Shown piece after piece: positions 30,901 through 63,561 of a stretch of DNA of 64,000 nucleotides. Under the pieces are notes generated by a model. The model was not told the origin of the DNA, did not search any database, and saw only the letters and a list, made by a program, of their open reading frames with translations. Source of the DNA: Escherichia phage KKP 3954. Made by a program: the position numbers and the translations under genes. The stretch lies in sequence record OR067838.1, one strand, 5' to 3'. How positions within the stretch are numbered: the stretch's first letter is position 1; each line of letters begins with the position of its first letter.

Positions 30901-30902
30901 GT

Positions 30903-38013: not shown

Positions 38014-38231
38014 GTACTGCATTTTATGTTCGTAGCGGAGACGAGGATTTTCTAGCTACTTTTGATGACGGTGATCTTGAAGATATGTATGAAGATATGC
38101 TTGACTATGCCAAAGGGCAAGGTTTCACAAGCATTGATTATATGTTGGCAACATCTACAACGTTACTCGACGCAGATTTGGATGAAGTGTGTAACAGATT
38201 GAAAATTTCAGTTTTTAAATGGGAGGACTAA
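38010..38231 (+). CDS. acidic small protein
   Basis: 73-aa Asp/Glu-rich ORF. Confidence 0.25.
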   Translation: MSTAFYVRSGDEDFLATFDDGDLEDMYEDMLDYAKGQGFTSIDYMLATSTTLLDADLDEVCNRLKISVFKWED

Positions 38232-39346
38232 TGCAACAAACAAATCAAACGCTGTATGGTAAAGATTCAAAAGGAAAACTTAAACAGTGGACAGTGTATA
38301 CAGATGGTGCAGTTGTTACTGTAGCTCATGGAAGGGTAGGTGGAAAAATCACAGAAAAATCTTATACAGCAGAAGCAAAAAACATTGGTCGTTCCAATGA
38401 AACAACACCGGAAGAACAAGCTGAACTTGAAGCTTTTGCCAAATGGACAAAACAGTTAAAGAATGGCTATTATAAAACAAAAGAAGAAGCTGAAAACCAT
38501 GTTCCTTCTACACCAATGAAATGCCAGGATTATAAAGATTATCCTGAAAGGGTTGTGTTCCCTGGTTATGCACAATACAAACTGAACGGGTTACGTTCTA
38601 TGATTAACATGAAAGGGGAGTGTTTATCAAAAGCTGGGGAAGTGTATAACCTGCCACCTCATTGGGAAGGTATTCCAAACTTTATTAGTGAAGTTGTTGG
38701 TCATCCTCTTGATGGTGAAGTGTTTGCTGGGTTAGGTGTCCTTAGTCTGCAACAAATTAACAGTGCCTGGAAGAAGCATAATGCAAATACACCTTTGCTG
38801 AATTATTACGTATACGATATTCCAGTTCCAGATCTACCGTTTGAAAAACGTGTTGATGTTCTGGCTGCTCTTAAGGCAGTAGTGGAAGATTATGGTCTTG
38901 ATGAGCTTATTTGTGTAGTTCATACAGAGTATATTGAAAACCAAGAACAGTTTGATGCTTTCTATGAAAAAGCTTTACTTGAAAAGGCTGAAGGTGTAGT
39001 ATATCGTAATGCTCGCGGAGTTTACGAATTTGATAAACGTTCTTATGACGTTATTAAACGTAAGCCTCGCCACACCCTTGAAGTTAAAGTAACAAATTCA
39101 AAAAGTGATAAAAATGGCGATGGAGTGTTGACAGGTGAGATGGAAAATGGTAAAGTAGTCGAATTCTTAATGCGTAAAGATGCTCATGAGACTATCAATT
39201 ATCGTAAAGCAGAGAATGCTTCTACCTTGATTAATCAGTTCGTTGAAATAGAGTATGAAGAATTTTCAGATGAAGGTATTCCAACAAAACCTGTTGGTGT
39301 TCGTATTCGAGAAATGATCCCAGGCACTTGGGAACCAGCAGAATAA
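38219..39346 (+). CDS. ATP-dependent DNA ligase
   Basis: Motif I KLNGLR, motif IV EGVVYR, downstream KRK. Confidence 0.55.
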   Translation: MGGLMQQTNQTLYGKDSKGKLKQWTVYTDGAVVTVAHGRVGGKITEKSYTAEAKNIGRSNETTPEEQAELEAFAKWTKQLKNGYYKTKEEAENHVPSTPMKCQDYKDYPERVVFPGYAQYKLNGLRSMINMKGECLSKAGEVYNLPPHWEGIPNFISEVVGHPLDGEVFAGLGVLSLQQINSAWKKHNANTPLLNYYVYDIPVPDLPFEKRVDVLAALKAVVEDYGLDELICVVHTEYIENQEQFDAFYEKALLEKAEGVVYRNARGVYEFDKRSYDVIKRKPRHTLEVKVTNSKSDKNGDGVLTGEMENGKVVEFLMRKDAHETINYRKAENASTLINQFVEIEYEEFSDEGIPTKPVGVRIREMIPGTWEPAE

Positions 39347-42122: not shown

Positions 42123-42812
42123 ATGCCCGTAGAATATAAATCTGAACGGTTAGATATCAAACCACTTCAGCTTTCAGAAACCAAAGATTATCTTGTGGAA
42201 TTCCACAATGGTGATGTTGTTACTGTAATAGAGGCTGACGATGAGTTGGAGAAATATGGTTTCCAGGGTTATAAAGATTATAAAAGGACGGGTAAATTTT
42301 CTTATATCGTAGTGTCTATCGATAAAGATAGTTTACATACTCCTAGTATCCTTTTTAATTTCTACAAAGAAGATGGAGTCTTTAAAAACCCAGATATAAT
42401 TCTTATTGATGAATCTATTGGCGACATATGGATCGTAGATAAAGGTAAAAAGAAAGAAGTTAAAGGTTGGGGCAGTTACTGGTTAGCATATCAAATGCTA
42501 ATGGGAGATAAAACAGATAGTATCCGACCTTATCAAGATTTTGATATTAAGTTTGGAGATATTACTTGTTTTAATCTTCTTTCAGCTTGTAAAACTCAAG
42601 CAGAGCTTTTCCAAACAGTTAAAGATACTTACTACTCATGGTTCCCAGATGGTGTTAATTTTACTTCTTGGGATGGAGAAGAAGTCCATATGACAACAGA
42701 TGAATGGATAGAAACAATTTTCCAGTTGGTATACATGAAACGCTGGGATAATGACGATACAACATTTGAGAGTATGCTTCAGTCATACATCTCACAACAG
42801 GAGGCAGAGTGA
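42123..42812 (+). CDS. hypothetical protein; open frame extends upstream to 41682 without canonical start
   Basis: Same frame is stop-free for 377 codons from 41682; strong SD AGGGGGA at 41683-41689. Confidence 0.35.
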   Translation: MPVEYKSERLDIKPLQLSETKDYLVEFHNGDVVTVIEADDELEKYGFQGYKDYKRTGKFSYIVVSIDKDSLHTPSILFNFYKEDGVFKNPDIILIDESIGDIWIVDKGKKKEVKGWGSYWLAYQMLMGDKTDSIRPYQDFDIKFGDITCFNLLSACKTQAELFQTVKDTYYSWFPDGVNFTSWDGEEVHMTTDEWIETIFQLVYMKRWDNDDTTFESMLQSYISQQEAE

Positions 42813-43459
42813 GCAGATTAACAGAAGAGCAGAAAGCAGATATCCTTAGTATGAGTGCAGAGGGTATGTCTTCTCGCAATATTGCAGCAATTGTTTTAGG
42901 TAGTCCAACAAGAAAAAGCACAGTAAATGATTTCCTTGCACGTTTCGGTGCAAGTAAACAAGAGCCAGTTAAAAAGAAACAACCAGTTATTAAAATTATT
43001 GATGTTGAAACTGCACCAGAGATTGCATATACTTTCCGTCGATTCAAAGCCTTCATTTCTCCAGACCAGGTAATTCGTAGGGGTTATTTGTTATCTTACT
43101 CTTCTGCTGATTTGTATACAGGTGAAGTAGAAGGTAAGAACTTATCTTCTTATCCTCTTTTCGATATCGATCATACAGACGATTGGGAGCTTTGCCAAGA
43201 TCTTTGGAACCTTCTGAATGAGGCAGATGTAGTTGTGGCACACAACGGGTATAAGTTTGACCGTGCATACATTAACCAACGATTTGCATATCACGATATG
43301 GCTCCTCCTTCTAATTATGTAGTTGTTGATACATTGAAGGCAGCTAAGAAACAATTTGCACTTCCTTCCAACTCCCTTAAAGAAATGGGAGCATATTTCG
43401 AAACAGAAAGTGAAAAACTGGATAACGAGGGGTTCCCCTTTATGGAAAGCATGTTGTGA
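42809..43459 (+). CDS. DnaQ-like 3'-5' exonuclease, N-terminal part
   Basis: Exo I IDVETAP, Exo II AHNGYKFD; N-terminal HTH-like segment. Confidence 0.5.
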   Translation: MSRLTEEQKADILSMSAEGMSSRNIAAIVLGSPTRKSTVNDFLARFGASKQEPVKKKQPVIKIIDVETAPEIAYTFRRFKAFISPDQVIRRGYLLSYSSADLYTGEVEGKNLSSYPLFDIDHTDDWELCQDLWNLLNEADVVVAHNGYKFDRAYINQRFAYHDMAPPSNYVVVDTLKAAKKQFALPSNSLKEMGAYFETESEKLDNEGFPFMESML

Positions 43460-43769
43460 AGGTGATCGTGATGCTTTTGAACGTATGCAGATTTACAATG
43501 ATGGCGATGTTGTTTCACTCCGTGATTTGTATATGAAAATCCTTCCGTGGATTCCACAGCATCCTAACTTATCCGCTTATTACCCAGATGAGAAGGTCCG
43601 TTGTTCTCGTTGTGGCAGTGATCACGTTCACGTTGTTACTGGTAAACAATACCACACTGCGGTAAGTTCTTTCGATATCATTCGTTGTGAATCTTGCGGA
43701 GGTTTGTCACGTAGTAGAGCAAACACCAGATCCAAGGATAAACGAGCAGCAACTATCATCGGAATCTAA
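43356..43769 (+). CDS. DnaQ-like exonuclease, C-terminal part after frameshift
   Basis: Exo III YNDGD then Cys4 zinc ribbon; frames meet at GGGG/CCCC runs near 43420-43430. Confidence 0.45.
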   Translation: MHFLPTPLKKWEHISKQKVKNWITRGSPLWKACCEGDRDAFERMQIYNDGDVVSLRDLYMKILPWIPQHPNLSAYYPDEKVRCSRCGSDHVHVVTGKQYHTAVSSFDIIRCESCGGLSRSRANTRSKDKRAATIIGI

Positions 43770-45875: not shown

Positions 45876-46289
45876 ATGACAAAACAGATTTCGGCTAGTA
45901 TTATTGCACATTCCATCACTGAAGACGGAAAAGAGATTGTAACTTTCGAACTTGAATATCCACGTATTATTCATTCAGAACTGATGACTCACCGCCTGTT
46001 CAGTCGTAACGCTGCTTCTAGCCGTGCTATACCTGTTAAAACACTGATCGAAATGGTGCGAAATCAGCCTGCTCGTCCTTATCGTTTTGGTGCTAACCAA
46101 CCTGGTATGCAGGACAAAGGTGTTGACCATGATGCTCTTATTGATGCAGGTTATACTGCTCAAGAGTGGTGGGATCTTGCCGCGCTTAGCGCAGCACGTT
46201 TTGCAGAAGAATTCTCTTTGGCAGGGAATACCACAAACAAGTTGCAAACCGTCTTCTGGAACCTTTCCAACGAATTAAAACAGTTCTGA
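45876..46289 (+). CDS. thyX: flavin-dependent thymidylate synthase ThyX-like, N-terminal part
   Basis: THRLFSRNAASSR fits ThyX (R)HR-x7-S-x-R with Thr for the first Arg. Confidence 0.5.
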   Translation: MTKQISASIIAHSITEDGKEIVTFELEYPRIIHSELMTHRLFSRNAASSRAIPVKTLIEMVRNQPARPYRFGANQPGMQDKGVDHDALIDAGYTAQEWWDLAALSAARFAEEFSLAGNTTNKLQTVFWNLSNELKQF

Positions 46290-46357
46290 CAGCAACAGAA
46301 TATGAAAATTTCTGGTGGCTACGTGATGACAAAGAAGCCGATCCTACTATCGAAGCT

Positions 46358-46876
46358 TTGGCTAAAGAGATGCACAAAGAGTATGAAGAATCTACACCAG
46401 AAGTGCTGAAACCAGGGCAATGGCACACACCTTATGTAGACCATTTCTATGATAATATTGGCACAGAAGGTGACGATCATTTTGTTTTTGGTGGATACTA
46501 CGTTCAAGATGAATCTGGAGAAGTTGTTGTGCTTACTTTGGAAGAAGCTAAAGCTATTTCAGCTTCGTGTTGTGCACAGGTTAGCTATCGTCGTTTGAAT
46601 GCAACTAAAGATAAAGCTTTAGATATTTATGGTCGTTTGCTAACTGGGCGCAAGGTTCATGCTTCTCCATTTGAACATCAAGCCACCCCAATGCAAGAAA
46701 CATGCGAACAATACGGAGAGAACTGTTTTGAAGATTTGTTTATCAATGCTCCTTGGGATTTTAACTCTTGGGAACCAGGTATTACCCATGTAGATCGTAA
46801 TGGTAAGTTTTGGTCTGGCAATTTCAAAGGTTGGATTCAACATCGTCAACTTTTAACAAATCATACTAAATGGTGA
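46358..46876 (+). CDS. thyX: ThyX-like, C-terminal part after frameshift
   Basis: Frame open from 46190; ANRLLEPF...TATEYENFWWLRDDKEADPTI matches ThyX NF-x-LR-xD block. Confidence 0.45.
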   Translation: MAKEMHKEYEESTPEVLKPGQWHTPYVDHFYDNIGTEGDDHFVFGGYYVQDESGEVVVLTLEEAKAISASCCAQVSYRRLNATKDKALDIYGRLLTGRKVHASPFEHQATPMQETCEQYGENCFEDLFINAPWDFNSWEPGITHVDRNGKFWSGNFKGWIQHRQLLTNHTKW

Positions 46877-47652: not shown

Positions 47653-49893
47653 TTGATTCGTTTTGTAACTAAATCTAATGGTAAGACAGAGGAGTTTAAC
47701 CCAGAAAAACTTCGCAAGTGGTCTGAATTTGCAGCAGGTAAACTAAACTGGTCTGAAATTGAATTAGAAGCTGTGAAGCGGTGTTATGACGGTGTGTCTA
47801 CACGTGATCTGCATAAAGCAATGATTGCAGCGTGTATTGACAAGAAAACACAAGCTTACAGTGATATGGCAGGAAGACTTCTTCTAGGTATGATTTACAA
47901 ACAGGCTCATGGGGGATACCACAGTATCCCTTCACTGAATACCTTTTATCATGATATGGTAGAACGTGGACACTGGGCTAAAATGGATTATACTGATGAA
48001 GAGATCAAAGAAATCGGTAAGATTGTAAAGCATAATAAAAATCTAACTTATGGTTATTCTGTTTTACGTCAGATGGTAGATAAATATCTTATTCGAGATG
48101 CAGTAAACGATGTGGTGCATGAGTCTCCACAGTTTCTTTTCATTGGTATCGCAATGAAGGTTATGGAGATCCAACCAAAAGAACGCCGTATAGAAGATAT
48201 TAAAAAACTTTATACTTATGTTAGCGATCTTAAGATTAATCTGCCATCGCCGTATCTGACAACTCTACGAACTCCAATCAAAGGAAGTGCGTCTTGTTGT
48301 TTATTCCGTGCAGATGATACGGCAGAGTCTTTAGCCATTGCTAATTACTTAGCTCATGAGTATACATTGAATAACGCAGGTATTGGTGTTAATCTTCAAA
48401 CTCGTGCCACAGGTCAAGGTGTTAAGAATAATCGTATTATTCACGGTGGTCTTCTTCCGTATCTGAAATGGATGGAAGATAGTGTTGGAGCTTCAAAGCA
48501 AGCAAGCCGTGGAGGTAGTGCTACAGTTACCTTTACCATACTTGAACCAGACTTCGACGATCTGATTCGACTGAAGAATCCAACAACACCTATAGATAAA
48601 CGAGTGGATAAACTAGATTATTCTATTGTTGTTAACCGTTCGTTCTTGCGTCGAGCAGCAAAAAACGAAGACTGGATGTTAGTTAGTTGTGATGATGCTC
48701 CTGAACTTTATGAAGCTTTATATAAAAGTGAAGAAGAGTTTGATGCAGTTTATGACAAAGTAAGTCGTCGTCGCATTAAGAAAAAATTTGTTAAGGCTCG
48801 TGATCTTCTGACAGAGATTATTGTTCAACGTGCAGAAACAGGACGTATTTACATGTTCTTTGCTGACAACGTTAACAACCATACACCTTTCTTGGATACG
48901 GTGTATCAATCAAACCTGTGTCAAGAGATCTTCTTGCCAACTAAAGCTTTCCACAGTATGCCGGATCTCTTTACTGGTGAGAATACAGAAGATCAAGAAT
49001 TGGCTTTATGCTTCTTATCTTCTATTGTTGCTGGTCGTGTATTACCTGAAGAATATGAGGATGTTGCATACTACACTGTATTGACAATTGACAACGTTAT
49101 TGAAACAATGGATTATCCATTTAAACATAACGAAATAACTGCTAAAGCACGTAGATCTATTGGTGTAGGTATTACAAACTTAGCGCATTACTTGGCAAGT
49201 AATTTTGTAAATTATTCAGATGCTTATGCTAAAAAATTAATGCATGAACTTGCAGAACGTCATTACTTTTGGTTGGCAAAAGCCTCTCTGCGTCTGGCTA
49301 AGGAAAAAGGTAATGCGGAATGGATCGATAAGACAAAATGGCCTCAAGGTTGGCTACCAATTGACACCTATGCTAAAACAGTAGATAGTATCGGTAATTT
49401 TGATCTTAAAATGGACTGGGAAGGCTTACGTGCTGAAATCATTGAACAAGGTGGTATCCGTAACAGTGTATTGGCTGCTATTGCACCTAATGAGTCCAGC
49501 AGTTTGGTAAGCAATACTACTAACTCTCTGTATCCTGTTCGTGATACCATTATGTATAAACAAAGTCAGAAAGGTAGTGTATTATTTATTGTTCCAGACT
49601 ACGAAAAACTGAAAATGTTCTACCAATCTGCCTGGGATACTCCGGCTAAAGACCTTGCAGAAATGTATGGTATCTTTACCAAGTTTACTGACCAAGGAAT
49701 TTCTTGTGATTCTTGGCTAGATTATTCTAAATTGGTAGGTGGACGTTTATCCGTGAAAGCTGAGATGCAGTTTATTTTGAATTTTGCTAGACTGGGTGGC
49801 AAATCATTGTATTACCTTAATAGTAGAACAAAATCAGCAGACTCTTTAGCACAAGAAGATTCTGATGGTGGTTGTGAAGCTTGCAAGATGTGA
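47653..49893 (+). CDS. nrdA: ribonucleoside-diphosphate reductase alpha subunit
   Basis: 746 aa, N-terminal ATP-cone, class I RNR large-subunit length and C-terminal Cys pair. Confidence 0.9.
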   Translation: MIRFVTKSNGKTEEFNPEKLRKWSEFAAGKLNWSEIELEAVKRCYDGVSTRDLHKAMIAACIDKKTQAYSDMAGRLLLGMIYKQAHGGYHSIPSLNTFYHDMVERGHWAKMDYTDEEIKEIGKIVKHNKNLTYGYSVLRQMVDKYLIRDAVNDVVHESPQFLFIGIAMKVMEIQPKERRIEDIKKLYTYVSDLKINLPSPYLTTLRTPIKGSASCCLFRADDTAESLAIANYLAHEYTLNNAGIGVNLQTRATGQGVKNNRIIHGGLLPYLKWMEDSVGASKQASRGGSATVTFTILEPDFDDLIRLKNPTTPIDKRVDKLDYSIVVNRSFLRRAAKNEDWMLVSCDDAPELYEALYKSEEEFDAVYDKVSRRRIKKKFVKARDLLTEIIVQRAETGRIYMFFADNVNNHTPFLDTVYQSNLCQEIFLPTKAFHSMPDLFTGENTEDQELALCFLSSIVAGRVLPEEYEDVAYYTVLTIDNVIETMDYPFKHNEITAKARRSIGVGITNLAHYLASNFVNYSDAYAKKLMHELAERHYFWLAKASLRLAKEKGNAEWIDKTKWPQGWLPIDTYAKTVDSIGNFDLKMDWEGLRAEIIEQGGIRNSVLAAIAPNESSSLVSNTTNSLYPVRDTIMYKQSQKGSVLFIVPDYEKLKMFYQSAWDTPAKDLAEMYGIFTKFTDQGISCDSWLDYSKLVGGRLSVKAEMQFILNFARLGGKSLYYLNSRTKSADSLAQEDSDGGCEACKM

Positions 49894-49900: not shown

Positions 49901-49922
49901 AGGGGCTTCGGCCCCTTTTTAT
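49901..49922 (+). terminator. rho-independent terminator
   Basis: AGGGGC-TTCG-GCCCCT plus TTTTT. Confidence 0.6.
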
Positions 49923-49937: not shown

Positions 49938-51026
49938 ATGGCAGCAATTAATTTACACAATGAAGTTTACAAAACAGGAAAATATCCAGTATTTTTAGGG
50001 GAACAATTAGGGATCTTTGATTCTGTTAACGTAACTTATCCAGAGATGCACAAACTCTACAAACTTCAAAAAGCACAAGATTGGGATGAGAATGAAGTCA
50101 ATCTGGATCAGACACGTAAAGATTTCGTAGCTTGTTCTAAAAACAACTATGATGTTATGATTAAAAACTTATCGTTCCAATGGGAAAATGATTCTCTTGC
50201 AAAATCAATCATCACTTTGTTCTCTCCATTCTTGAGTAACAATGAAGCCTGTGCTATGATGATGAAGCAGAGTGAAATGGAAGTTCTCCATGCGTTAACG
50301 TATTCTGAAATAATCCGTCAATGTACTCCAGATCCAATCGAAGTCATCAATCAGATTATGATTAATGATAAAATTTTCAATCGTATGGGTATCATTGCTG
50401 ATATCATGGGTCAGTTGGAAGAAGCTGGTCATAAGTATGCTCTAGGATTGATTGAAGCTAACGATGAACTTCGACTGCTGATTCTTAAAGGGATGGTAGC
50501 CCTGATTGGATTAGAAGGTATTCAGTTTATATCTTCCTTCTCTGCTACTTTTGCTATGGCAGAACAACAACTGTTTGTTGGGGCTTGTAAACTGATCCAG
50601 AAAATTATGCTAGATGAAATCTTGCATGTTAAGATGGATTATGCTGTAATTGATGCATTGATGCATGACCCAATTTGGCGTAAAATTTACGAAGACAATA
50701 TTGAAGAGTTGACTTTGATCCTCGACACTGTTGTTGAACAAGAGGAACAGTGGTGTGACTACCTGTTTAGTGAAGGTCGTTTTATTGTAGGTCTTAACGC
50801 CGAATTGTCTAAACAGTGGGTTTATTTCAATGCTGCTCCTATTTATCGTCGATTGAAAATGAAAGCCAAGTTTAAAGCACCTAAACATAGCCCTTTAGCT
50901 TGGATGGAAAAATGGTTGAATCCTGATTTGATTCAGTCAGCAGCCCAAGAGATTCAGTTAACTAACTACAAATTGAATTCAGCTAACAAAGATCTCTCTG
51001 ATGATGAGGAGCTTGACTTCGAATGA
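49938..51026 (+). CDS. nrdB: ribonucleoside-diphosphate reductase beta subunit
   Basis: 362 aa directly after nrdA, diiron/tyrosyl-radical subunit architecture. Confidence 0.85.
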   Translation: MAAINLHNEVYKTGKYPVFLGEQLGIFDSVNVTYPEMHKLYKLQKAQDWDENEVNLDQTRKDFVACSKNNYDVMIKNLSFQWENDSLAKSIITLFSPFLSNNEACAMMMKQSEMEVLHALTYSEIIRQCTPDPIEVINQIMINDKIFNRMGIIADIMGQLEEAGHKYALGLIEANDELRLLILKGMVALIGLEGIQFISSFSATFAMAEQQLFVGACKLIQKIMLDEILHVKMDYAVIDALMHDPIWRKIYEDNIEELTLILDTVVEQEEQWCDYLFSEGRFIVGLNAELSKQWVYFNAAPIYRRLKMKAKFKAPKHSPLAWMEKWLNPDLIQSAAQEIQLTNYKLNSANKDLSDDEELDFE

Positions 51027-51232
51027 TTTTGAAATGTGTTGGTATAATCGACACATTCAAAGACGTTTTTGATAAAGGGGCTTCTTATGAAGCCTCTGAA
51101 ATGAAGAATGGTTTTTGTGATGTATTCGGTAAACGCCTGAAGAAAAACGGCGATCCTTGGCTAGGAGTTATGTCTTGTGGTCATATTATTGTAAATGGTG
51201 TTGCCAAATTTGAAATAATTAAGGAGGAATAG
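51023..51232 (+). CDS. hypothetical protein
   Basis: 69-aa ORF. Confidence 0.3.
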   Translation: MILKCVGIIDTFKDVFDKGASYEASEMKNGFCDVFGKRLKKNGDPWLGVMSCGHIIVNGVAKFEIIKEE

Positions 51233-51384
51233 TGGCTGAAAAACTTATTTTTTGTCCTGTGTGCGGTGGGACGGGACAGATGGAAGTGGAAATTATGGTA
51301 ACATTTCCTTGCCTGAATTGTCATGGTGAGGGACGAGTAGTAGTCTTTGAAAAAGAAGGGTTGGAGGTAGAAGATGGAGAGTGA
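51232..51384 (+). CDS. zinc-ribbon small protein
   Basis: GTG start after AAGGAGG; CPVCGG and CLNCHG; below track cutoff. Confidence 0.3.
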   Translation: MAEKLIFCPVCGGTGQMEVEIMVTFPCLNCHGEGRVVVFEKEGLEVEDGE

Positions 51385-51527
51385 AAAAGAGTATGTCCGC
51401 ATTCCACGAGAATTAACAGATCACATTGCAGAAGCAATAGCTTTCGAAGCTAGATGTTGTGGAGGTATTGCTTACGATATTTATGAAGCAATTATTAAAG
51501 CTGCTCAAGAAGAGGAGGAGATGAATA

Positions 51528-51854
51528 ATGGGTATTGATATCGAATGGCGTATGTTACAGGGTGCACCATATGATAAATGGAAAGAAATATTTGGAGACG
51601 ACCCACAAGTTGAAGACCAGTTCGATGGGGACTTTAATTGGTTTCTCTGCGAAGGTTTGGGCTTGGAAAACATTTCCCCGTGGTACGATGCAGATCCTGA
51701 AGATTGTGTCTTCGGTGTCAAGCTGTGTAGCGGTTGTGGTGCTTGTGCCATAGACCTCACAAGCTTAAATAAAAAAGCAAATGAGATCTATTTTGAACTA
51801 CTTAATAAGTATAATATTGAAACTGAAACATTAGTGTCACAAAACGTCTGGTAA
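51528..51854 (+). CDS. hypothetical protein
   Basis: 108 aa with CSGCGAC motif. Confidence 0.3.
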   Translation: MGIDIEWRMLQGAPYDKWKEIFGDDPQVEDQFDGDFNWFLCEGLGLENISPWYDADPEDCVFGVKLCSGCGACAIDLTSLNKKANEIYFELLNKYNIETETLVSQNVW

Positions 51855-51863
51855 GGAGAACTG

Positions 51864-52349
51864 ATGCGCTATCTGGTAACAGGTGGTCTTGGTTTTATTG
51901 GGAGCGCCGTGGTGCGCTCTCTTTGTCAAGATCCTAATAACGAAGTTTTTATCATTGATAAAATGGGTTATGCAGCAGACATTGAGAATGTAGGTGATAT
52001 CACTCACGCTAAACTAAGCATGACAGATTTGGCAAACGAAGCCCAGGTCAAAAGTTTAGTAGTAGAGTGCAATCCCGATTTCATCATTCACTTAGCGGCA
52101 GAGAGCCATGTGGATAATTCTATCAAGAATCCACGAGCTTTCATCGACTCCAATATTATTGGTACATACAATTTATTGGAAGCTGCAAGGCTCCTCCCAA
52201 AGAATAAACTGAAGATGTTCATACACGTCTCCACAGACGAAGTGTATACGGTGATATGGCAGACTCTGGCGTTCCCTTTACCGAAGAGACAGCTTATGCC
52301 CCTTCAAGCCCGTACAGTGCGTCTAAGGCAGCATCTGACCATCTTGTGA
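51864..52349 (+). CDS. rmlB: dTDP-glucose 4,6-dehydratase, N-terminal fragment
   Basis: Rossmann GGLGFIGS; reads through HVSTDEVY then leaves frame. Confidence 0.75.
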   Translation: MRYLVTGGLGFIGSAVVRSLCQDPNNEVFIIDKMGYAADIENVGDITHAKLSMTDLANEAQVKSLVVECNPDFIIHLAAESHVDNSIKNPRAFIDSNIIGTYNLLEAARLLPKNKLKMFIHVSTDEVYTVIWQTLAFPLPKRQLMPLQARTVRLRQHLTIL

Positions 52350-52858
52350 AAGCTTGGCACCGTACCTACGATTTACCTGTTGTGATAACCAACTGCTCCA
52401 ATAACTTTGGACCCTATCAACATCCAGAAAAGCTGATCCCAAAAATCATCACAAGTATCTTGACGAATAAAGAGATTCCGGTGTATGGTAAAGGCGATCA
52501 GGTGCGAGACTGGCTTTTTGTTGAGGATCATGCGCGAGCTATTCTTCAAGTGGCAACAGGTGGAGAACCAGGTAAAACGTATAATGTGGGAACACGTAAT
52601 CCCAAAACCAATATGGAGATCATCTATATGGTTTGTGACTACATGGATGCTGTACATCCAGAAGCAGGAACCTACCCTTCTTCCAACTTGATAACTTTTG
52701 TTGAAGATCGTAAAGGGCATGACTTGCGTTATGAAATCAATCCTTCTAAGATAGAGTTTGAACTGGGTTGGAGTGCAAACTCTACATTTGAACAAGATCT
52801 CTACTCAACGATTGAATGGTACTTAAACAACCCTCAATGGTGGAGTGGGAAGATTTAA
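52256..52858 (+). CDS. rmlB: dTDP-glucose 4,6-dehydratase, C-terminal fragment
   Basis: Continues VYGDMADSG...[13 protein letters not shown] (YxxxK) in shifted frame. Confidence 0.75.
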
Positions 52859-52866
52859 GGAGGGCT

Positions 52867-53745
52867 ATGAAAGGTATTATTTTGGCGGGAGGAAGTGGAA
52901 CCCGCCTTCATCCGGTAACACGCAGTGTGAGCAAGCAATTGCTCCCTGTGTATGACAAACCCATGATCTACTACCCTTTATCGGTATTGATGTTGGCTGA
53001 CATTAAGGATATCTTAATCATTACCACACCAGGCGATCAGGAAGACTTTGAGTATCTTCTCGGAGATGGGTCTATGTTTGGGATAAAACTCACTTACGCA
53101 ATCCAATCCGAGCCACGAGGTCTTGCGGACGCTTTCATCATCGGTAAAGATTTTATCGGAGAAGACTCTGTTGCTCTTATTTTAGGTGACAACCTATTCT
53201 TCGGACAAAGCTTTGGTAAACTACTGATTAACGCCAGTGAGATGGTAGATGTTTGTGGCGGAGCTTGTATCTTCGGGTATTTGGTGAAAGATCCTGAACG
53301 ATTCGGTGTGGTTGAATTTGGGAGTAATCGTCAAGCTATTTCTATTGAAGAGAAACCTGAAAATCCTAAATCAGATTATGCTGTCACAGGTTTGTATTTC
53401 TATGATAACTCTGTTGTTCAACGTGCATTAGAAGTAACCCCTTCCGCGCGTGGAGAACTGGAGATCACAGATATCAATCGCAGCTACCTCGAAGACAGGA
53501 AGTTACAAGTGGAAGTTCTCGGACGAGGATTTACTTGGCTTGACACAGGAACACACGCCAGTCTGATGGAAGCTGGTCAATTCGTGCAGACTATTGAGAA
53601 CCGTCAAGGATTGAAGATTGCGTGCCTGGAAGAAATTGCTTTCAAAAAAGGGTGGATTTCTTTAGAGACTTTGTTGTATCATGGAAACTCACTGAAGAAA
53701 ACAGAATACGGGCAATACCTACTCAAATTAGCGGAGAGAAAATGA
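52867..53745 (+). CDS. rmlA: glucose-1-phosphate thymidylyltransferase
   Basis: [32 protein letters not shown], near-identical blocks to enterobacterial RfbA. Confidence 0.9.
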
Positions 53746-54308
53746 AAGTAGAAAAAACAAAAATTGAAGGTGCGGTAATTATCAAACCAGACGTTTATAA
53801 AGATGATCGTGGTTTCTTTTTAGAAACATATAATGAACAAAAATACGAAGATATCATTGGTAGACAAACTTTCGTTCAAGATAACATGTCTAAATCAAAC
53901 TTCGGTGTTTTGCGAGGAATGCACTTTCAAACAAATAATCCGCAAGGTAAGCTTGTTCGTTGTGTAAGTGGGGAAGTATTGGATTTCGCTGTAGACCTAC
54001 GTAAAGATAGTCCTACTTACGGTGCTTGGGACGGTGTTGTTCTTCGTGCACGACACCATACACAGTTCTGGCTTCCACCTGGTTTGGCACATGGTTTTAT
54101 AGTGCTGAGTATGGATGCTATCTTCGAATACAAATGCACAACTCCATACGACCCTTCCAGCGAACAAAGTTTACGTTGGGATGATCCTGATATAGGGATT
54201 GATTGGGGCTTCGATATGATTTTTGACGAAGATTTTAAACCTATCTTATCAACAAAAGATGCAATGGCTAAGTCTTTTCAACAGCTACGTAGCGAGGGTG
54301 TATGCTAA
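53742..54308 (+). CDS. rmlC: dTDP-4-dehydrorhamnose 3,5-epimerase
   Basis: ATG overlaps rmlA stop; RGMHFQ cupin motif. Confidence 0.8.
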
Positions 54309-55144
54309 CATATCTGGTATTGGGTGGTAATGGACAACTGGGACAAGCTTTACGTAAAGTGGCTCCTTCAAATGTGTCTTTAATTTATCCTAAAGAACGT
54401 GTAGATATTACAAATTTTGAAGCTGTGCGAAACGCTATTGTTGAAGATTATGTAGATGGTGTTATTAATTGCGCTGCTTATACGGCTGTAGATAAAGCAG
54501 AACATGATTTTGCTACTGCTTTGGCTGTTAATGCCTATGGCCCTGCAAATACTGCGGCAGTGTGCAGCAAACTTAAAATTGATTTTGTGCATATTTCTAC
54601 AGACTATATTTTTAATTATTCTCATCCTATTTTTGAAGATACTACACCTAACCCAATAAACAATTATGGGTATACGAAAGAACTTGGTGAAAAAATGGTG
54701 CGAGGAGTTAACCCAAATGCATATATTATTCGAACAGCCTCGGTATATAGCGAATTTGGAAATAACTTTCTAAAAACCATGTTGTCTCGCTATAATGATG
54801 GACAACGTGATTTTATTATTGTTGCTGATCAGTTCTCTTGTCCAACATATGCCCCAGATTTAGCAGAAGCTATTTTTGAAGTATTAAAAACAGGTTGGTC
54901 AAGATCTGTAAAGACTTACCATTTTGCAGGAAGCCATCTTATTTCTTGGGCGGAGTTTGCGGAAAAGATCTTGACACAGATGCCAGAACCTGTTAAGATA
55001 TCGGCGGTATCAGCTTCAACCTATAATGCTCCAGCAGCACGTCCGGTGAAGTCACAATTAGTAACCAGTCACTATCTTACAAAATCAGATTTAAATAAAG
55101 GTATTGAACGGTCTTTAGCAGTATTACTTAATAAGGAGAGGTAA
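54302..55144 (+). CDS. rmlD: dTDP-4-dehydrorhamnose reductase
   Basis: 280 aa, N-terminal GGNGQLG Rossmann motif, operon position. Confidence 0.75.
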   Translation: MLTYLVLGGNGQLGQALRKVAPSNVSLIYPKERVDITNFEAVRNAIVEDYVDGVINCAAYTAVDKAEHDFATALAVNAYGPANTAAVCSKLKIDFVHISTDYIFNYSHPIFEDTTPNPINNYGYTKELGEKMVRGVNPNAYIIRTASVYSEFGNNFLKTMLSRYNDGQRDFIIVADQFSCPTYAPDLAEAIFEVLKTGWSRSVKTYHFAGSHLISWAEFAEKILTQMPEPVKISAVSASTYNAPAARPVKSQLVTSHYLTKSDLNKGIERSLAVLLNKER

Positions 55145-55404
55145 TGGAATTTGTAATTTTTGGTAAACCTAACTGTCAATTTTGCGAAATGTCAAAACAA
55201 CTATTAACCATGCGCAATAAACAGTTTGAATATTTAAGTCTTGACCAAGACTACGATTTAGAATCAATGACTAAAACAGTTGTTGATCTTACCGGAGTTC
55301 CTCCACGCACATTTCCACAAATTCTGTCTGAAGTGAACGGGGAGGTAACATACGTAGGCGGTTTTACCGAACTGCGTGATCTCATGGCTCAAATTGCGGA
55401 GTAA
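55144..55404 (+). CDS. glutaredoxin-like protein (NrdH/NrdC type)
   Basis: 86 aa with CQFC active site. Confidence 0.7.
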   Translation: MEFVIFGKPNCQFCEMSKQLLTMRNKQFEYLSLDQDYDLESMTKTVVDLTGVPPRTFPQILSEVNGEVTYVGGFTELRDLMAQIAE

Positions 55405-55409
55405 CAATT

Positions 55410-55559
55410 ATGAAAAGTAAACAGAAACGTAAGATCTTTTCTCGTGCTTTGGCAAATGAGCTGAAGTCCAACATAAAGAAAACGAAACCAAAACGTGAAA
55501 CTTCTCCAGAACACCTGTTGTTTAACGAGTTGGATCACGGAGTAGGAGACGACGAATAG
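55410..55559 (+). CDS. small basic protein
   Basis: 49-aa Lys/Arg-rich ORF, below track cutoff. Confidence 0.2.
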   Translation: MKSKQKRKIFSRALANELKSNIKKTKPKRETSPEHLLFNELDHGVGDDE

Positions 55560-58118: not shown

Positions 58119-58218
58119 AAACATAGGAGATTAATAATGTTACAAGTTCCTGCTAAGTTTGTTGAAGGCGCTATCCACTCTTACCGTCAAACATGTAAGA
58201 GGGCAAGAAACTGTTTAG

Positions 58219-58572
58219 ATGGTCTGGTGGCAAAAACCTATACTGTTGAAAAAGAAAAAACGTTGGTTTGGCAAAGATGTTTACGAAGTTAATATTTTTG
58301 GTGAACATAAACTAAACCACGATACTCCTGAAAACATGTTAGAAATATTTCTAAGAGATGACAAAATATCTCCTATGGATTACCAACTTTTAAAATTTTA
58401 TGATTCTTCTTTGGCTATTGATAAGTTTGTTGAAGATATTCTGTCTAGAAAAACAGATAAAAACACTTATCCTCTAGAGGCTGATCAAATAGGATTATTA
58501 AACGAGATTTCATCCTTTAAAGAGTTGGATAATATTACAAAAGAGGAGATTTTAGATGGCATTAGATTATGA
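58219..58572 (+). CDS. hypothetical protein; probably starts at ATG 58137 before a frameshift
   Basis: ORF from 58137 (RBS AGGAG) joins this frame at an A6 run near 58250. Confidence 0.3.
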   Translation: MVWWQKPILLKKKKRWFGKDVYEVNIFGEHKLNHDTPENMLEIFLRDDKISPMDYQLLKFYDSSLAIDKFVEDILSRKTDKNTYPLEADQIGLLNEISSFKELDNITKEEILDGIRL

Positions 58573-59065
58573 TCGCCCAACGAGCGATTATTATCCGACA
58601 CCGCAAAAAGCAATCAACAGTTTGTTTAGTGTTATAGATTTCAAAAATCTAAAGGAAGAAGGTTGGGTTTTTGCAGAACCTTGTAGAGGTGAAGCTGAAG
58701 CGATTTATCGCCATTTTCCTGAAGGTTCAGAATATTGTGAACTTGAAGAAGGTAAAGATTATTTTAGTCATGAATGGGAAAATCGTCCCGACATTATAAT
58801 CACAAATCCTCCATTCAAGTTAGCAATGGAGTTCTTGGAAAAGAGCTTAAAAGAGGCGGATGTTTGTATTTATCTTCTTCGGTTGGGCTTCTTGGAGTCA
58901 AAGAAACGACGAGAGTTCCATCAAAAGAATCCACCAACAAACCTTATAGTCCTTTCAGAACGGCCTTCGTTTGTTGCAGGTGGAACAGATAAGACAGCAT
59001 ACGCTTGGTATGTATACGACCCAAAGAATCGTTTGGGCCTCTCTCAACCATTTTATTTTGTTTAA
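58556..59065 (+). CDS. N6-adenine DNA methyltransferase, phage Dam-like
   Basis: DYYPTP and IITNPPF motifs in 169 aa. Confidence 0.55.
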   Translation: MALDYDRPTSDYYPTPQKAINSLFSVIDFKNLKEEGWVFAEPCRGEAEAIYRHFPEGSEYCELEEGKDYFSHEWENRPDIIITNPPFKLAMEFLEKSLKEADVCIYLLRLGFLESKKRREFHQKNPPTNLIVLSERPSFVAGGTDKTAYAWYVYDPKNRLGLSQPFYFV

Positions 59066-59077: not shown

Positions 59078-59314
59078 ATGGGTAAACTAATTATGACAGT
59101 GGCTATTGATTTTGATGAAGTAGATGAAAGCCTCAACCTTTCACTTTCTACTGATGTAGAGGGTGAAATGGATAATATTGAAGCAGCTACTGCTCTTTTC
59201 TTCAAAAAGGCCATTGAAGTTTATGCCGAACATGCTGCAAATCAGGCAGTAGATTACGGTGGTATCGTGCGAGCTTTGGTTCACTCTACCGAGGACAATG
59301 ACTGGGAAGACTAA
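59078..59314 (+). CDS. hypothetical protein
   Basis: 78-aa acidic ORF. Confidence 0.3.
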   Translation: MGKLIMTVAIDFDEVDESLNLSLSTDVEGEMDNIEAATALFFKKAIEVYAEHAANQAVDYGGIVRALVHSTEDNDWED

Positions 59315-59517
59315 TGGCTTACAATTATTACTGCATTTATGCACATGAAAAGAAGAAAGGTGACACTGGGACTAACGTTTATGCGGAGTCTGAATCTCAT
59401 GCAAAAGAGATTGGTGCTATCCTTTTATCACGCTGGACTGGAAATAATTACAGTGCAGAAGATATGTTTGCAGAAGTGGATTCTAGTATCCAAGAAGGCA
59501 ACATAACAACTACGTGA
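59314..59517 (+). CDS. hypothetical protein
   Basis: 67-aa ORF. Confidence 0.3.
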   Translation: MAYNYYCIYAHEKKKGDTGTNVYAESESHAKEIGAILLSRWTGNNYSAEDMFAEVDSSIQEGNITTT

Positions 59518-59525
59518 TATACTTA

Positions 59526-59552
59526 TACTCCCTTCTCGGAGGGAGTATTTTT
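59526..59552 (+). terminator. rho-independent terminator
   Basis: TACTCCC / GGGAGTA hairpin plus TTTTT. Confidence 0.5.
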
Positions 59553-59563
59553 AAGGAGGGATT

Positions 59564-59758
59564 ATGCAGAGCGGAGAAGAACTTTTAGAGAAACAATTCT
59601 CAACGCGTCAACAAGCTTTAAGTTATATGGTTTTTCTAAGCAATCTTGATGTGAATGAGATACTTTTACGGCGCGAAGGTAATTTCTGGAGCGTTAAATA
59701 CCATGCAACAAGATCTGTAATCTACCTAGAAGAGGCGGAATTCTCTTTGGTAGAATGA
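59564..59758 (+). CDS. hypothetical protein
   Basis: 64-aa ORF. Confidence 0.3.
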   Translation: MQSGEELLEKQFSTRQQALSYMVFLSNLDVNEILLRREGNFWSVKYHATRSVIYLEEAEFSLVE

Positions 59759-60345
59759 TCCGAGGAGTAGTTATGCGTTCAACTTTCACTGGCAAAATAA
59801 ACGCTGGTTTAATTTTTACCGCAGTAAGCATTCTTAGCAAAAAGTTTAAAGTTGTTAACTTACCTGTGTGTGTCGATTTCGATCATGTCTTTGATCCTTC
59901 GAACCCCACTCGTTGCATAGTAAGGAGTAATGTTGAAAACCCAACAGAAAATCTTTTTTATGTAACAAAACCATCTCAAAGCATACTTAACCAGGTTGAG
60001 GCGAAATTGATACCTAACGGTAAATATTACTCCTTTTTACCTTGCAAGTCGGTTGAAGTAGAGAATAGCAATACTTTCGCTAACAACTTGTCTGTATTCG
60101 TTTTCTTTGTTTCGCACGAAGATGAAACAGATGAAATGGTAGCAACAGTGAGATCACTTTATGACTCTTTAGGGGTTGTTTATAGACAACAAGTGTGCGA
60201 AAATAATAAAGCTTGTGTAGATTTCATTATCAACGGTATTTGTGTTTGTAGAGTAGAATCTTTTTGGCTGCACGATACATATGTGACTGTAGCAGAGGTT
60301 ATATCTGAACCAAAATTTAGTCATGCGGTTTCGTTAATAATTTGA
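59755..60345 (+). CDS. hypothetical protein
   Basis: 196-aa ORF. Confidence 0.3.
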   Translation: MIRGVVMRSTFTGKINAGLIFTAVSILSKKFKVVNLPVCVDFDHVFDPSNPTRCIVRSNVENPTENLFYVTKPSQSILNQVEAKLIPNGKYYSFLPCKSVEVENSNTFANNLSVFVFFVSHEDETDEMVATVRSLYDSLGVVYRQQVCENNKACVDFIINGICVCRVESFWLHDTYVTVAEVISEPKFSHAVSLII

Positions 60346-60355
60346 GGAGGAAGGA

Positions 60356-60685
60356 ATGGAAATTACTACAGAACAAGCCCTTATCGACGAGGGTCGTAAA
60401 ATCTTAGAAAAGCATTTAGGGGAGATTCATAAAACTCCTGGCTATTTGGGTTGGAGAATTGTTGAAGCTGTAGATTTCCTTCCTCGTAACAGTAAAAGCG
60501 TCGAAATGCGATCTCTTTTCTTATTAGTAAAGGTGGATGGGGATACACCTTTTAAAGATGCCGCAGAGCATATTGAAAAAGTTGAAGAGAAAGCTTATGC
60601 AGAATTTGCCGATCTTGTTTTAGAACAAAAGATTGAAGGAAAGGTGAATATTTTTATTTTCTTAGATTTTGAGGAGGATAAGTGA
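60356..60685 (+). CDS. hypothetical protein
   Basis: 109-aa ORF. Confidence 0.3.
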   Translation: MEITTEQALIDEGRKILEKHLGEIHKTPGYLGWRIVEAVDFLPRNSKSVEMRSLFLLVKVDGDTPFKDAAEHIEKVEEKAYAEFADLVLEQKIEGKVNIFIFLDFEEDK

Positions 60686-61740: not shown

Positions 61741-62322
61741 ATGGCAGAATTGTTTTATACGGGAGTTGGAAGTAGAGACATCTCCGAAGAAGAGTGGGCT
61801 TTGATGGTAGGCATAGGGAAATGGCTTTCCAACCTTGGGTTTAAATTAAGGTCTGGGAAGGCAGAGGGTAGTGATTCTGCTTTTGAAACAGGTGTCCAAG
61901 AGTCTGAAAATCCTACTAACAAGGAGATTTATGTTCCTTGGGAAAATTTCAAAGGTAATCAGATTCCAGGTGATGTTATTGTTCTTGCAAAACCAGATAC
62001 AATGAACTATGCTATCTCTGTGCAATGGATCAAAGATGTTCACCCAGCTTATGAAAAGCTTAAGCAGGGTGCTAGAAAATTGCACCAACGTAATGTGCAT
62101 CAGGTGTTAGGTAAAGATTTGGAGAATCCTGCTCCATCATGTTTCTTGTTGGCTTGTGCCGATACTGATAAACACGGAGATGCAAAAGGCGGAACAGCTA
62201 CGGCTTGGAAGATAGCTAAAGCAAATAATGTTCCTTGTTTAAACATTCGTGGGAGAACAAAACAAGAGATTTATGATTTTCTACGACCTTTGGTAATGAG
62301 GGCAATAACAAGTGATTCCTAA
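61741..62322 (+). CDS. Rossmann-like SLOG/DprA-like protein
   Basis: YTGVGSRD and SGKAEGSDSAFE motifs. Confidence 0.3.
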   Translation: MAELFYTGVGSRDISEEEWALMVGIGKWLSNLGFKLRSGKAEGSDSAFETGVQESENPTNKEIYVPWENFKGNQIPGDVIVLAKPDTMNYAISVQWIKDVHPAYEKLKQGARKLHQRNVHQVLGKDLENPAPSCFLLACADTDKHGDAKGGTATAWKIAKANNVPCLNIRGRTKQEIYDFLRPLVMRAITSDS

Positions 62323-62824
62323 ACGTAAACGTGGTGAACAAAGAACAAACTTGGCAGAAATCTTAGATTACAACATGGTTAATGATGTGACAAAAGAAAT
62401 TCTCCCTGTTGTAGAAGATATTCTTCGTAGAGGGTTACGATTCTGCTCGGATCGGGTGCATTTCATGTGGACACATAAAAGTGATTCCGCTTTGAATTTC
62501 TATCCTTTAGACTACACTCTGAACAATGCAGAGATGAAAGATATTAACAAATATTTAATGGGGTATAAAGATATAACCGAAACTGTTCTTGGAGAATTGG
62601 CAGAAATCTTGGCTAACGATATCCTTAGAAATATTAATAAGGCTCTTGACAGAAGCCCAGAAGGAGTAGTAGTATCTTTTGCTGTGCCAGATATGGTTAA
62701 ATATGAGTCTACAATACCTAATAAAGCTTATGCCTTTCTTCGGAGAGACGTTCGTGGAAATGTGTTGGAGATGGAGTCAAACTACAAGATTGAGGAGGTT
62801 TTATGGCAGAGTTCGGATCAGTAA
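62312..62824 (+). CDS. hypothetical protein
   Basis: 170-aa ORF. Confidence 0.3.
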   Translation: MIPKRKRGEQRTNLAEILDYNMVNDVTKEILPVVEDILRRGLRFCSDRVHFMWTHKSDSALNFYPLDYTLNNAEMKDINKYLMGYKDITETVLGELAEILANDILRNINKALDRSPEGVVVSFAVPDMVKYESTIPNKAYAFLRRDVRGNVLEMESNYKIEEVLWQSSDQ

Positions 62825-63093
62825 CAAGTTTTGAAAGTAACTTCGTTACAGCTTGGGAAGCTTGGGATGAAATGGGTGTTGGGGAACTTTATTTTTACAA
62901 TGTAACATTACGTCCAGAGTATGCTTACCTGGTACCAGAAGGAACAGTTCAAATTGGCATGTATTTGTCTTCTCAAGACGGTGTTGTTCAATTTGAGTTT
63001 TATTCGAACACAACGGACAACGAATTTACATATCGTGCATTTCATGTCACCATGTCTTTAGGAGAGGAGAAATTTTATGACGACCAAGTTTAA
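62803..63093 (+). CDS. hypothetical protein
   Basis: 96-aa ORF. Confidence 0.3.
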   Translation: MAEFGSVTSFESNFVTAWEAWDEMGVGELYFYNVTLRPEYAYLVPEGTVQIGMYLSSQDGVVQFEFYSNTTDNEFTYRAFHVTMSLGEEKFYDDQV

Positions 63094-63274
63094 AACAGTA
63101 GAAGAAGCCGTAAAAGCAGCTTATGAGGCTTTAGCGGAAGCAGAGCAGTTAGCAGATGAGACTGGTAAAGGTTTCCGTTTCTCCCCTGAATATGGGATGG
63201 GTGGCTATTATGATCCAGAAGATGAAAATGAGAATACTGGAACAAATTGGCATCCATCTTCTTTAAGTTGTTAA
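63077..63274 (+). CDS. hypothetical protein
   Basis: 65-aa ORF. Confidence 0.3.
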   Translation: MTTKFKTVEEAVKAAYEALAEAEQLADETGKGFRFSPEYGMGGYYDPEDENENTGTNWHPSSLSC

Positions 63275-63561
63275 TAGGAGGTAAAGTGGGAATCGAAGAT
63301 ATCAAAGGTTATAAGGCGCATACTGACGATAAGATTGGCAAGGTTAACGCTATTAAAGATGCAGAAGAGCGTTTAGGTTTAATCTTCAAAGCTTTAGAGG
63401 AAGAGTATTGTGAAGCATATCATGGGTCTTTTGACGGCACAGAAAAAGAATTAGATCTTGCATACGAACGTATTGATCAAATCCGTTGTGCTATTAAACA
63501 TTTAAAAGAAGCTAGTATGTGGGCTTGTCGTTCAGTTTTCCAACCAGAGGAGAAATACTAA
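63247..63561 (+). CDS. hypothetical protein
   Basis: 104-aa ORF. Confidence 0.3.
   Translation: MASIFFKLLIGGKVGIEDIKGYKAHTDDKIGKVNAIKDAEERLGLIFKALEEEYCEAYHGSFDGTEKELDLAYERIDQIRCAIKHLKEASMWACRSVFQPEEKY

Follow-up and report, generated by a model that had tools for sequence, protein, structure and literature searches.

The dTDP-L-rhamnose gene cluster of Escherichia phage KKP 3954: two evolutionary modules and candidate users of the sugar

The rml locus and its four enzymes

We analyzed a stretch of 64,000 nucleotides of Escherichia phage KKP 3954 (sequence record OR067838.1), hereafter called the window, in which positions 51864-55404 hold four consecutive genes for the synthesis of dTDP-L-rhamnose, followed by a glutaredoxin gene. 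An earlier note on this DNA had described the four genes as a complete rml pathway, possibly captured from the host. The features of the locus are as follows:

51864-52858, plus strand: rmlB, dTDP-glucose 4,6-dehydratase; frameshifted here, the repaired protein having 330 residues and 97% identity to that of the closest relative
52867-53745, plus strand: rmlA, glucose-1-phosphate thymidylyltransferase; 292 residues, intact
53742-54308, plus strand: rmlC, dTDP-4-dehydrorhamnose 3,5-epimerase; 188 residues, intact
54302-55144, plus strand: rmlD, dTDP-4-dehydrorhamnose reductase; 280 residues, intact, member of a phage-specific clade
55144-55404, plus strand: glutaredoxin (NrdC-like), overlapping the rmlD stop codon by 1 nt

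Enzyme identity was judged by the curated NCBIfam equivalog cut-offs and by alignment of catalytic residues to solved structures. All four proteins scored above their cut-offs: RmlB (with the frameshift repaired) matched TIGR01181 with 428 bits (cut-off 365.1), RmlA matched TIGR01207 with 468.4 bits (360.65), RmlC matched TIGR01221 with 225.4 bits (155.75), and RmlD passed TIGR01214 narrowly, with 234.7 bits (224.05). The catalytic residues, which the earlier note had allowed might prove to be missing, were all in place. Aligned to Salmonella RmlB (1G1A), the phage RmlB contains TGGLGFIGS (the NAD-binding GxxGxxG motif), STDEVYG (Thr-Asp-Glu) and YSASK (YxxxK). RmlA has the motifs GGSGTRL, SKQLL, GDN, EEKP and WLDTG and aligned over its full length with 4HO0, 1LVW, 1MC3 and 1H5R. 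Equivalents of His63, Lys73, Tyr133 and Asp170 (Salmonella numbering) in RmlC all aligned to 1DZR, and the STDY (Thr) and YGYTK (YxxxK) motifs of RmlD aligned to 3SC6 and 1VL0. By these criteria, the locus encodes the four enzymes that lead from glucose-1-phosphate and dTTP to dTDP-L-rhamnose, as had been proposed.

The description of the locus as a complete pathway of four consecutive, translationally coupled genes was correct with regard to gene positions and strand, but rmlB is not one open reading frame (ORF) as sequenced. Similarly, coupling agrees with the overlaps between rmlA and rmlC (4 nt, ATGA) and between rmlC and rmlD (7 nt), whereas rmlB and rmlA are separated by a gap of 8 nt, which holds an AGGAGG site.

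In phAPEC8/phi92-type phages (Stephanstirmvirinae), this locus is the standard form of the rml cluster, and it was already known: over 100 phage genomes in GenBank have it annotated, dozens of them as rfbB, rffH, rfbC and rmlD. A megablast search of positions 51500-55500 against GenBank phages assigned the window to the genus Phapecoctavirus of this subfamily (phAPEC8-like E. coli myoviruses) and matched 124 phage records, which carry the same cluster in the same synteny. The top match was Escherichia phage vB_EcoM-Ro121c4YLVW (98.6% over the full length; hereafter Ro121c4YLVW), followed by ukendt, nieznany, phAPEC8, ESCO13 and other Phapecoctavirus members, and DNA identity to 63 Phapecoctavirus records was 95-99%. 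The window corresponds to approximately 36.8-100.8 kb of the 151.7-kb Ro121c4YLVW genome. In phi92 (gp067-gp064), the same B-A-C-D order is found between nrdB and grx. Thus, locus, genes, order and annotation are those of the phAPEC8 and phi92 clusters, from which the window differs by a private 2-nt insertion in rmlB. In the literature, we found no experiments that address the rml genes of these phages.

The rmlC-rmlD core, the rmlB-rmlA cassette and their origin

The two halves of the cluster differ in their distribution. The genes rmlC and rmlD were kept in each genus and record of Stephanstirmvirinae that was examined, down to 54% protein identity. The rmlB-rmlA cassette (51864-53741) was absent from up to 23 of the 64 Phapecoctavirus genomes: at least 80% of the region was covered in 41 of these records, and most of the others covered approximately 56% of it in two pieces, with ~1.88 kb missing. 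In the phages without rmlB-rmlA, a small conserved ORF (phrog_15453; 51528-51854 of the window, plus strand) directly abuts rmlC, and inspection of phage nepoznato, in which the small upstream ORF runs straight into rmlC, confirmed the absence of the two genes. Phage ESCO37 was also described as lacking the thymidylyltransferase and the dehydratase in a 2023 study (PMC10269720). The deletion junction is a GGAGA pentamer common to the ribosome-binding sites of rmlB and rmlC. Judged from this junction, the loss of rmlB-rmlA is a clean microhomology deletion, in which the rmlC start signal is retained.

A second difference was seen in the comparison with phage phiWec179. RmlB and RmlA of the window are 95% and 97% identical to their phiWec179 counterparts, with a synonymous divergence (dS) of 0.5-0.7; for the flanking proteins, identity was 88% (NrdB), 63% (RmlC), 65% (RmlD) and 76% (glutaredoxin), with saturated dS. 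In addition, the guanine plus cytosine (GC) content of rmlB-rmlA is 0.43 versus 0.37-0.39 in rmlC, rmlD and grx, and six of the GTAC sites, which are rare in the window, fall in rmlB. Because of the absence of rmlB-rmlA from relatives, the mosaic with phiWec179 and the difference in GC content, the cluster divides into two evolutionary modules: a vertically inherited rmlC-rmlD core, and a dispensable rmlB-rmlA cassette that was lost and swapped between phage lineages.

The division makes sense because every E. coli supplies the first two steps through RffH and RffG. These two enzymes produce dTDP-4-keto-6-deoxyglucose in all E. coli, for the enterobacterial common antigen (ECA), and RmlC and RmlD occur in E. 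coli only where the O-antigen contains rhamnose. Consistent with this background, an adjacent rffG-rffH pair matching rmlB-rmlA was detected in all 5,426 of 5,426 complete E. coli genomes, where it sits in the common-antigen locus, whereas the rmlC-rmlD half gave only weak rfbC matches, in 125 of these genomes. We infer that the phage would secure dTDP-rhamnose in every host with RmlC and RmlD alone, the role of RmlA and RmlB being only to raise the flux.

The earlier note had suggested that the cluster was captured from a host O-antigen locus, based on the near collinearity of RmlA with enterobacterial RfbA. The collinearity is real. However, it is not diagnostic of host capture, because archaeal and Firmicute enzymes are also collinear with RmlA and score higher. 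Protein identity to E. coli was 50% for RmlB (versus RffG or RfbB), 63-65% for RmlA, 48% for RmlC and 30% for RmlD, and all of the enterobacterial-specific NCBIfam models were missed (PRK10084, 399 vs 649 bits; PRK15480, 418 vs 588 bits; PRK09987, 117 vs 308 bits). RmlD homologs with more than 50% identity were mostly located on phage-sized contigs, after which identity dropped to ~42% for the nearest non-phage homologs, mostly from Bacteroidota; the closest solved structures of RmlD were those of Bacillus and Clostridium, not Salmonella. Gene order also differs, being B-A-C-D here and rfbB-D-A-C in E. coli. These identities, missed models and gene order lend no support to capture from an O-antigen locus of the host, and the cluster is instead an old acquisition inherited within the phage subfamily.

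The bacterial rfbBDAC and rffG-rffH genes do share with the phage cluster the same four enzyme families and catalytic residues, and the adjacency of B and A resembles rffG-rffH. Bacterial rfb loci are, however, flanked by galF and gnd and include O-unit transferase, flippase and polymerase genes, none of which is present at the phage locus; the phage cluster is instead part of a nucleotide-metabolism operon and has its own gene order. An assembly chimera, or a recent capture of host rfb DNA, would fit the slightly higher GC content of rmlB-rmlA (0.43) than of its flanks and the collinearity of RmlA with RfbA. We give this explanation almost no weight: the same synteny in 124 phage genomes and the low DNA identity to E. 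coli (among the 5,426 genomes the best match has ~64-67% identity, and the ~64% match spans 45% of the cluster) rule out the phage/host chimera about which the earlier note had cautioned, and the E. coli identities of 64-67% for DNA and 30-65% for protein, together with the gene order, refute a recent capture.

Gene context, the rmlB frameshift and GTAC sites

In the window, minus-strand structural genes extend to ~28 kb, followed by ten tRNA genes and a long plus-strand block for replication and nucleotide metabolism. The earlier note had placed the rml genes between nrdAB and glutaredoxin, in the same block as a ThyX-like gene and DNA ligase, and the coordinates confirm both statements:

38219-39346: DNA ligase, same block as the rml genes
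45876-46876: ThyX-like gene, same block as the rml genes
47653-49893: nrdA, upstream of nrdB
49938-51026, plus strand: nrdB, ribonucleotide reductase small subunit, upstream neighbor of the rml cluster

The glutaredoxin gene at 55144-55404 belongs to the nrd module and not to the sugar pathway. A terminator-like hairpin is present at 49901-49916, ahead of nrdB, and the next one on the plus strand is found only past the lysozyme gene. A promoter scan yielded 35 sites versus 29 ± 6 in shuffled sequence, no better than chance, and no promoter inference was drawn from it.

Several other features of the window were observed. The ten-tRNA cluster (29054-30977, minus strand) comprises two Met tRNAs and one each for Ile, Pro, Gln, Gly, Thr, Asn, Ser and Arg, and has many indels relative to the closest relative. 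A 104-residue protein (63247-63561) matched the Pfam Acb2/Tad1 hairpin domain (E 8e-15) and is probably an anti-CBASS/anti-Thoeris signal sponge. A 114-residue protein (34729-35073) matched Pfam cREC_REC, a cyclic-phosphate processing receiver domain (E 1.5e-15).

The rmlB gene carries a 2-nt TA insertion at 52245-52246, directly after the STDEVY motif, by which GTGTACGG in relatives becomes GTGTATACGG in the window (GTAC to GTATAC). As a result, rmlB is not in a single frame but is split into ORFs 51864-52349 (161 residues), which carries the Rossmann motif and the Thr-Asp-Glu residues, and 52256-52858 (200 residues), which carries YxxxK. Because rmlB is frameshifted, the window as written lacks a complete pathway. 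All full-length relatives listed span 3999 nt versus 4001 nt in the query, and the insertion is therefore private to the window. A programmed frameshift was ruled out, as rmlB occupies a single frame in every relative.

Relative to Ro121c4YLVW, the window contains many one-base homopolymer insertions, one of which, at 17748, splits the tail sheath gene. Genes interrupted by small insertions in this comparison include the following:

6388-9266, minus strand: tail protein of 958 residues
16662-18072, minus strand: tail sheath
~21700-22100, minus strand: head decoration gene
42809-43769, plus strand: exonuclease subunit
58137-58572, plus strand: hypothetical gene

These homopolymer and other small insertions that break genes suggest an error-prone assembly of the window sequence. 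Whether the rmlB frameshift is an artifact or real, it would be tolerable during infection, as host RffG and RffH would keep the pathway going.

The frameshift and the absence of rmlB-rmlA from up to 23 of 64 related genomes might be taken as signs that the rml genes are decaying baggage, with no function for the phage and in the process of being lost. We consider this very unlikely. The ratio of nonsynonymous to synonymous substitution rates (dN/dS) was 0.04-0.27 across the four genes, which indicates purifying selection, and their catalytic residues are intact. In addition, rmlC-rmlD is found even in the records with 54% protein identity, and the frameshift is private to a sequence that is itself probably error-prone, with the tail sheath and other structural genes also frameshifted.

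The ThyX-like gene, which is one 999-nt gene in relatives, is also interrupted in the window: an inserted AA (46227-46228), which falls on a GTAC site, splits it into ORFs 45876-46289 and 46358-46876. The intact protein has 332 residues and is a long, divergent member of Pfam Thy1 (33 bits); it had no sequence match in the PDB.

GTAC is itself unusual in this DNA. The window has 30 sites versus 182 expected by a Markov model and 225 by base composition, making the tetramer ~6-7-fold rarer than expected. The closest relative has 52 GTAC sites, 29 of which (56%) are altered in the window, whereas other tetramers have a median of 7% and a maximum of 20%. Nineteen of the 28 substitutions at altered sites change G to A at position 1 or, as the same change on the other strand, C to T at position 4. 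TA duplications that give GTATAC, the expected result of fill-in and religation after a G^TAC cut, occur at 7298, 22003 and 52244, with related insertions at 12424 and 46227; a further altered site was seen at 52221. The GTAC-associated coding substitutions include 11 synonymous and 7 non-synonymous changes, against a background of 814 and 178. The GTAC-centered differences, including the rmlB insertion, may reflect base-calling error at a modified motif, or they may reflect true purging of the motif by a restriction enzyme that recognizes GTAC. The window also has two small genes for DNA methyltransferases, one at 58556-59065, with an NPPF motif typical of N6-adenine methyltransferases, and one inside the head-gene module at 23236-23715 (minus strand). 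Either of them may be the source of a motif-specific modification.

Glycosyltransferases and the acceptor of the sugar

No glycosyltransferase was found by Pfam in the unassigned plus-strand ORFs between 32 and 64 kb, including 51023-51854, 59078-60685 and 62312-63561. The earlier statement that none is recognizable in the window thus holds for its plus-strand half. Its suggestion to search the remaining genome was productive, as the closest relative has four tandem annotated glycosyltransferase genes outside the region that corresponds to the window (Ro121c4YLVW, NC_052654.1, gp027-gp030, 13401-16545). The block is located just upstream of the primase-helicase and DNA polymerase genes, with the endolysin and tellurite-resistance-type (Ter) gene region on its other side, and consists of one small protein of no assigned fold, one GT-A protein (gp028) and two paralogous GT-B proteins (gp029 and gp030). 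A separate observation is that the Ter set (TerC, TelA, a vWA-TerF-like protein and TerD; NC_052654.1, ~4400-12100), upstream of the transferase block, is kept across the phage group and its metagenomic relatives.

All four proteins were assigned to glycosyltransferase families in PHROGs. In Pfam, gp029 and gp030 gave sub-threshold GT-B matches, and gp028 gave a weak match to TAGT (E 1.3e-3); the PHROG match of gp028 was to a beta-glucosyl-hydroxymethylcytosine (HMC)-alpha-glucosyltransferase and was also weak (E 4e-6). Sequence searches of two of the glycosyltransferases against the PDB returned nothing meaningful. A structural model of the gp028 family (mean predicted local distance difference test score, pLDDT, 87) has a predicted GT-A fold with a DDD motif, and its structural neighbors are GlfT2, polypeptide GalNAc-T1, the Listeria rhamnosyltransferase RmlT and SpsA. 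The gp029 model (pLDDT 94) has a predicted GT4-like GT-B fold, for which T4 DNA glucosyltransferases appear only in the middle of the list of matches.

Sixty-four Phapecoctavirus records carry the transferase block at 95% identity or higher, and Justusliebigvirus has it at 70-75% protein identity; these are approximately the same records as those with RmlD. The block is retained in phages without rmlB-rmlA. No Vequintavirus-type relatives were among the gp028 or gp029 matches. The order of Ter genes, endolysin, transferases, primase and polymerase is kept in metagenomic relatives at 53-57% identity.

Related modules were also found in temperate prophages. A prophage of Enterobacter huaxiensis has a compact module of gp027, gp028 and gp029 homologs (38-46% identity) with its own RmlB-like 4,6-dehydratase, and a Pseudomonas silvicola prophage has gp028 and gp029 homologs side by side. 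Both modules are located in the late operon, between lysis genes and terminase/head genes. The dehydratase of the Enterobacter prophage supports the view that the transferase module consumes a deoxyhexose nucleotide, and the late-operon position in the prophages suggests that the module would be expressed alongside virion proteins. By tblastn, the only phage homologs of gp028 outside the subfamily were glycosyltransferases of 348 mycobacteriophages, including Cheoctovirus. The similarity is remote (~28% identity over 130 residues, E 1e-5 to 3e-7); in this comparison Pacc40 stands in for Che8, which belongs to the same genus.

The best explanation overall, which we favor with moderate confidence, is that of an rml cluster in two modules with the transferase block as consumer of its product and an acceptor other than DNA. 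The dTDP-rhamnose would feed the phage's own conserved block of four glycosyltransferases outside the window. In the most speculative step of this proposal, the acceptor would not be DNA but a protein or a glycan, with a virion protein as the most likely case. A protein acceptor is favored because the prophage modules sit in the late operon and because gp028 homologs occur in mycobacteriophages, including Cheoctovirus, a genus that is reported to glycosylate its capsid and tail tube (Freeman 2023, cited by PMC11256854 and PMC12363180). The parallel that we propose is the glycosylation of virions by mycobacteriophages (Che8, Corndog, Myrna) and by the chlorovirus PBCV-1, although the transferase similarity is remote. 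A virion protein is our leading, although unproven, guess.

Several points weigh against this explanation. The links from rml genes to transferases and to any acceptor are putative. Co-occurrence of the rml genes and the transferases is seen at the level of the subfamily only, which shared ancestry could explain, and the transferase block, being outside the window, is attributed to KKP 3954 from its relatives. The stereochemistry of the product at C4 (rhamnose or 6-deoxy-L-talose) is presumed from RmlD, which passes its cut-off only narrowly. Other points touch on DNA as the acceptor: gp028 weakly matches DNA-modifying families (Pfam TAGT and the PHROG HMC-glucosyltransferase), the ThyX-like protein is divergent and its chemistry putative, and both clusters lie among replication and nucleotide-metabolism genes, the usual site of phage DNA-modification genes.

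With DNA as acceptor, the phage transferases would place the sugar of dTDP-rhamnose on a modified base and thereby evade host nucleases, in a manner comparable to the glucosylation of hydroxymethylcytosine in T4. Olsen et al. 2020 (PMC7552041) called it 'peculiar' that the cluster lies among DNA-metabolism genes, and they proposed that hydroxymethylated nucleotides may be glycosylated with rhamnose. In addition to the position of rml in the nucleotide-metabolism block and of the transferases beside primase and DNA polymerase, this idea could draw on the weak similarity of the GT-A enzyme to TET-associated and T-even DNA glycosyltransferase families, on the presence of the divergent ThyX-like enzyme and a MazG-like pyrophosphohydrolase, and on the concentration of differences from the relative on GTAC, for which base-calling error at a modified motif is one possible cause. 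T4 and Phapecoctavirus would also have in common a nucleotide sugar put on a phage product by a phage-encoded route, with glycosyltransferases of the GT-B fold in both.

However, Maffei et al. 2021 (PMC8594841) reported an exceptional sensitivity of phi92-like phages and their relatives to restriction-modification of types I, II and III. Heavy avoidance of restriction sites likewise implies that the DNA is exposed to nucleases. In the window, CTGCAG occurs 0 times versus 15 expected, CAGCTG 0 versus 9.6 and GGATCC 1 versus 8.4, to which the deficit of GTAC (30 versus 182) is added; the avoidance of six-base sites marks a DNA that has long been exposed to type II restriction. When the window and 122 kb of the relative were counted, the ranges were 0 versus 15-25 expected for CTGCAG, 0-1 versus 10-13 for CAGCTG and 0-1 versus 8-21 for GGATCC; CGATCG, GCATGC and GGCGCC are absent from the relative's 122 kb. 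T4 uses host UDP-glucose and requires a dCMP hydroxymethylase and a dCTPase, whereas neither the Pfam scan of the window nor the gene annotation of the closest relative revealed a ThyA-type hydroxymethylase or TET/JBP enzyme that could make the acceptor hydroxyl. The divergent ThyX-family protein is the only candidate for unusual pyrimidine chemistry. In addition, the homologous module is placed in the late head-gene operon of small temperate prophages, and other proteins rank above the T4 DNA glucosyltransferases among the structural matches. Because of the published restriction sensitivity, the avoided restriction sites and the missing hydroxymethylase, DNA is disfavored as the acceptor, and we regard rhamnosylated DNA as improbable. 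Among the three purposes that the earlier note had listed, hypermodified DNA is therefore the least supported and a virion protein is favored as a guess, while host surface remodeling is a possible, although unlikely, third purpose.

In the latter case, the transferases would alter the lipopolysaccharide (LPS) core, O-antigen or another surface glycan of the host, and thereby block superinfection or the adsorption of progeny to debris. Surface glycans (ECA, LPS core, capsule) are the receptors of these phages (PMC10844046), and the LPS core of E. coli K-12 can receive rhamnose (Klein 2011, as cited in PMC12548472). The predicted transferase folds also match many envelope-glycan enzymes, RmlT, TarP, WaaG, PglA and PimA among them. 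On the other hand, no flippase, polymerase or membrane-anchored transferase was recognized beside either cluster, and a strictly lytic phage has little time for surface turnover. The prophage homologs are located in the late structural operon, whereas seroconverting gtr genes typically occupy a moron position at the attachment site. On balance, envelope remodeling appears unlikely.

For the favored protein acceptor, the major capsid protein of the window (20678-21676, minus strand) matched the solved chain Phi92_gp124 (entry 21uy; E 1e-201), and therefore a high-resolution phi92 structure exists. We found no phi92 structural paper in the literature that mentions glycans. It is tentatively possible that Stephanstirmvirinae use a host-complemented pathway (RmlC and RmlD, with or without RmlA and RmlB) and a portable module of three or four transferase genes to decorate their own virion proteins with a glycan that contains rhamnose. 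For phages of Gram-negative bacteria this would, to our knowledge, be the first system of virion glycosylation.

What is new here is the two-module structure of the cluster, its redundancy with host rffG-rffH, the finding that host capture is unsupported and the transferase module shared with temperate prophages. The question of what these coliphages, which are widely used therapeutic candidates, do with dTDP-rhamnose is now narrowed: rmlC-rmlD is the indispensable part, the four named glycosyltransferase genes are the likely consumers, and DNA is the least likely acceptor. If the virions are glycosylated, this would have a bearing on immune recognition and pharmacokinetics in phage therapy. 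If our proposal is true, virion glycosylation would be widespread, since lambdoid prophages of both Enterobacter and Pseudomonas carry the same transferase module.

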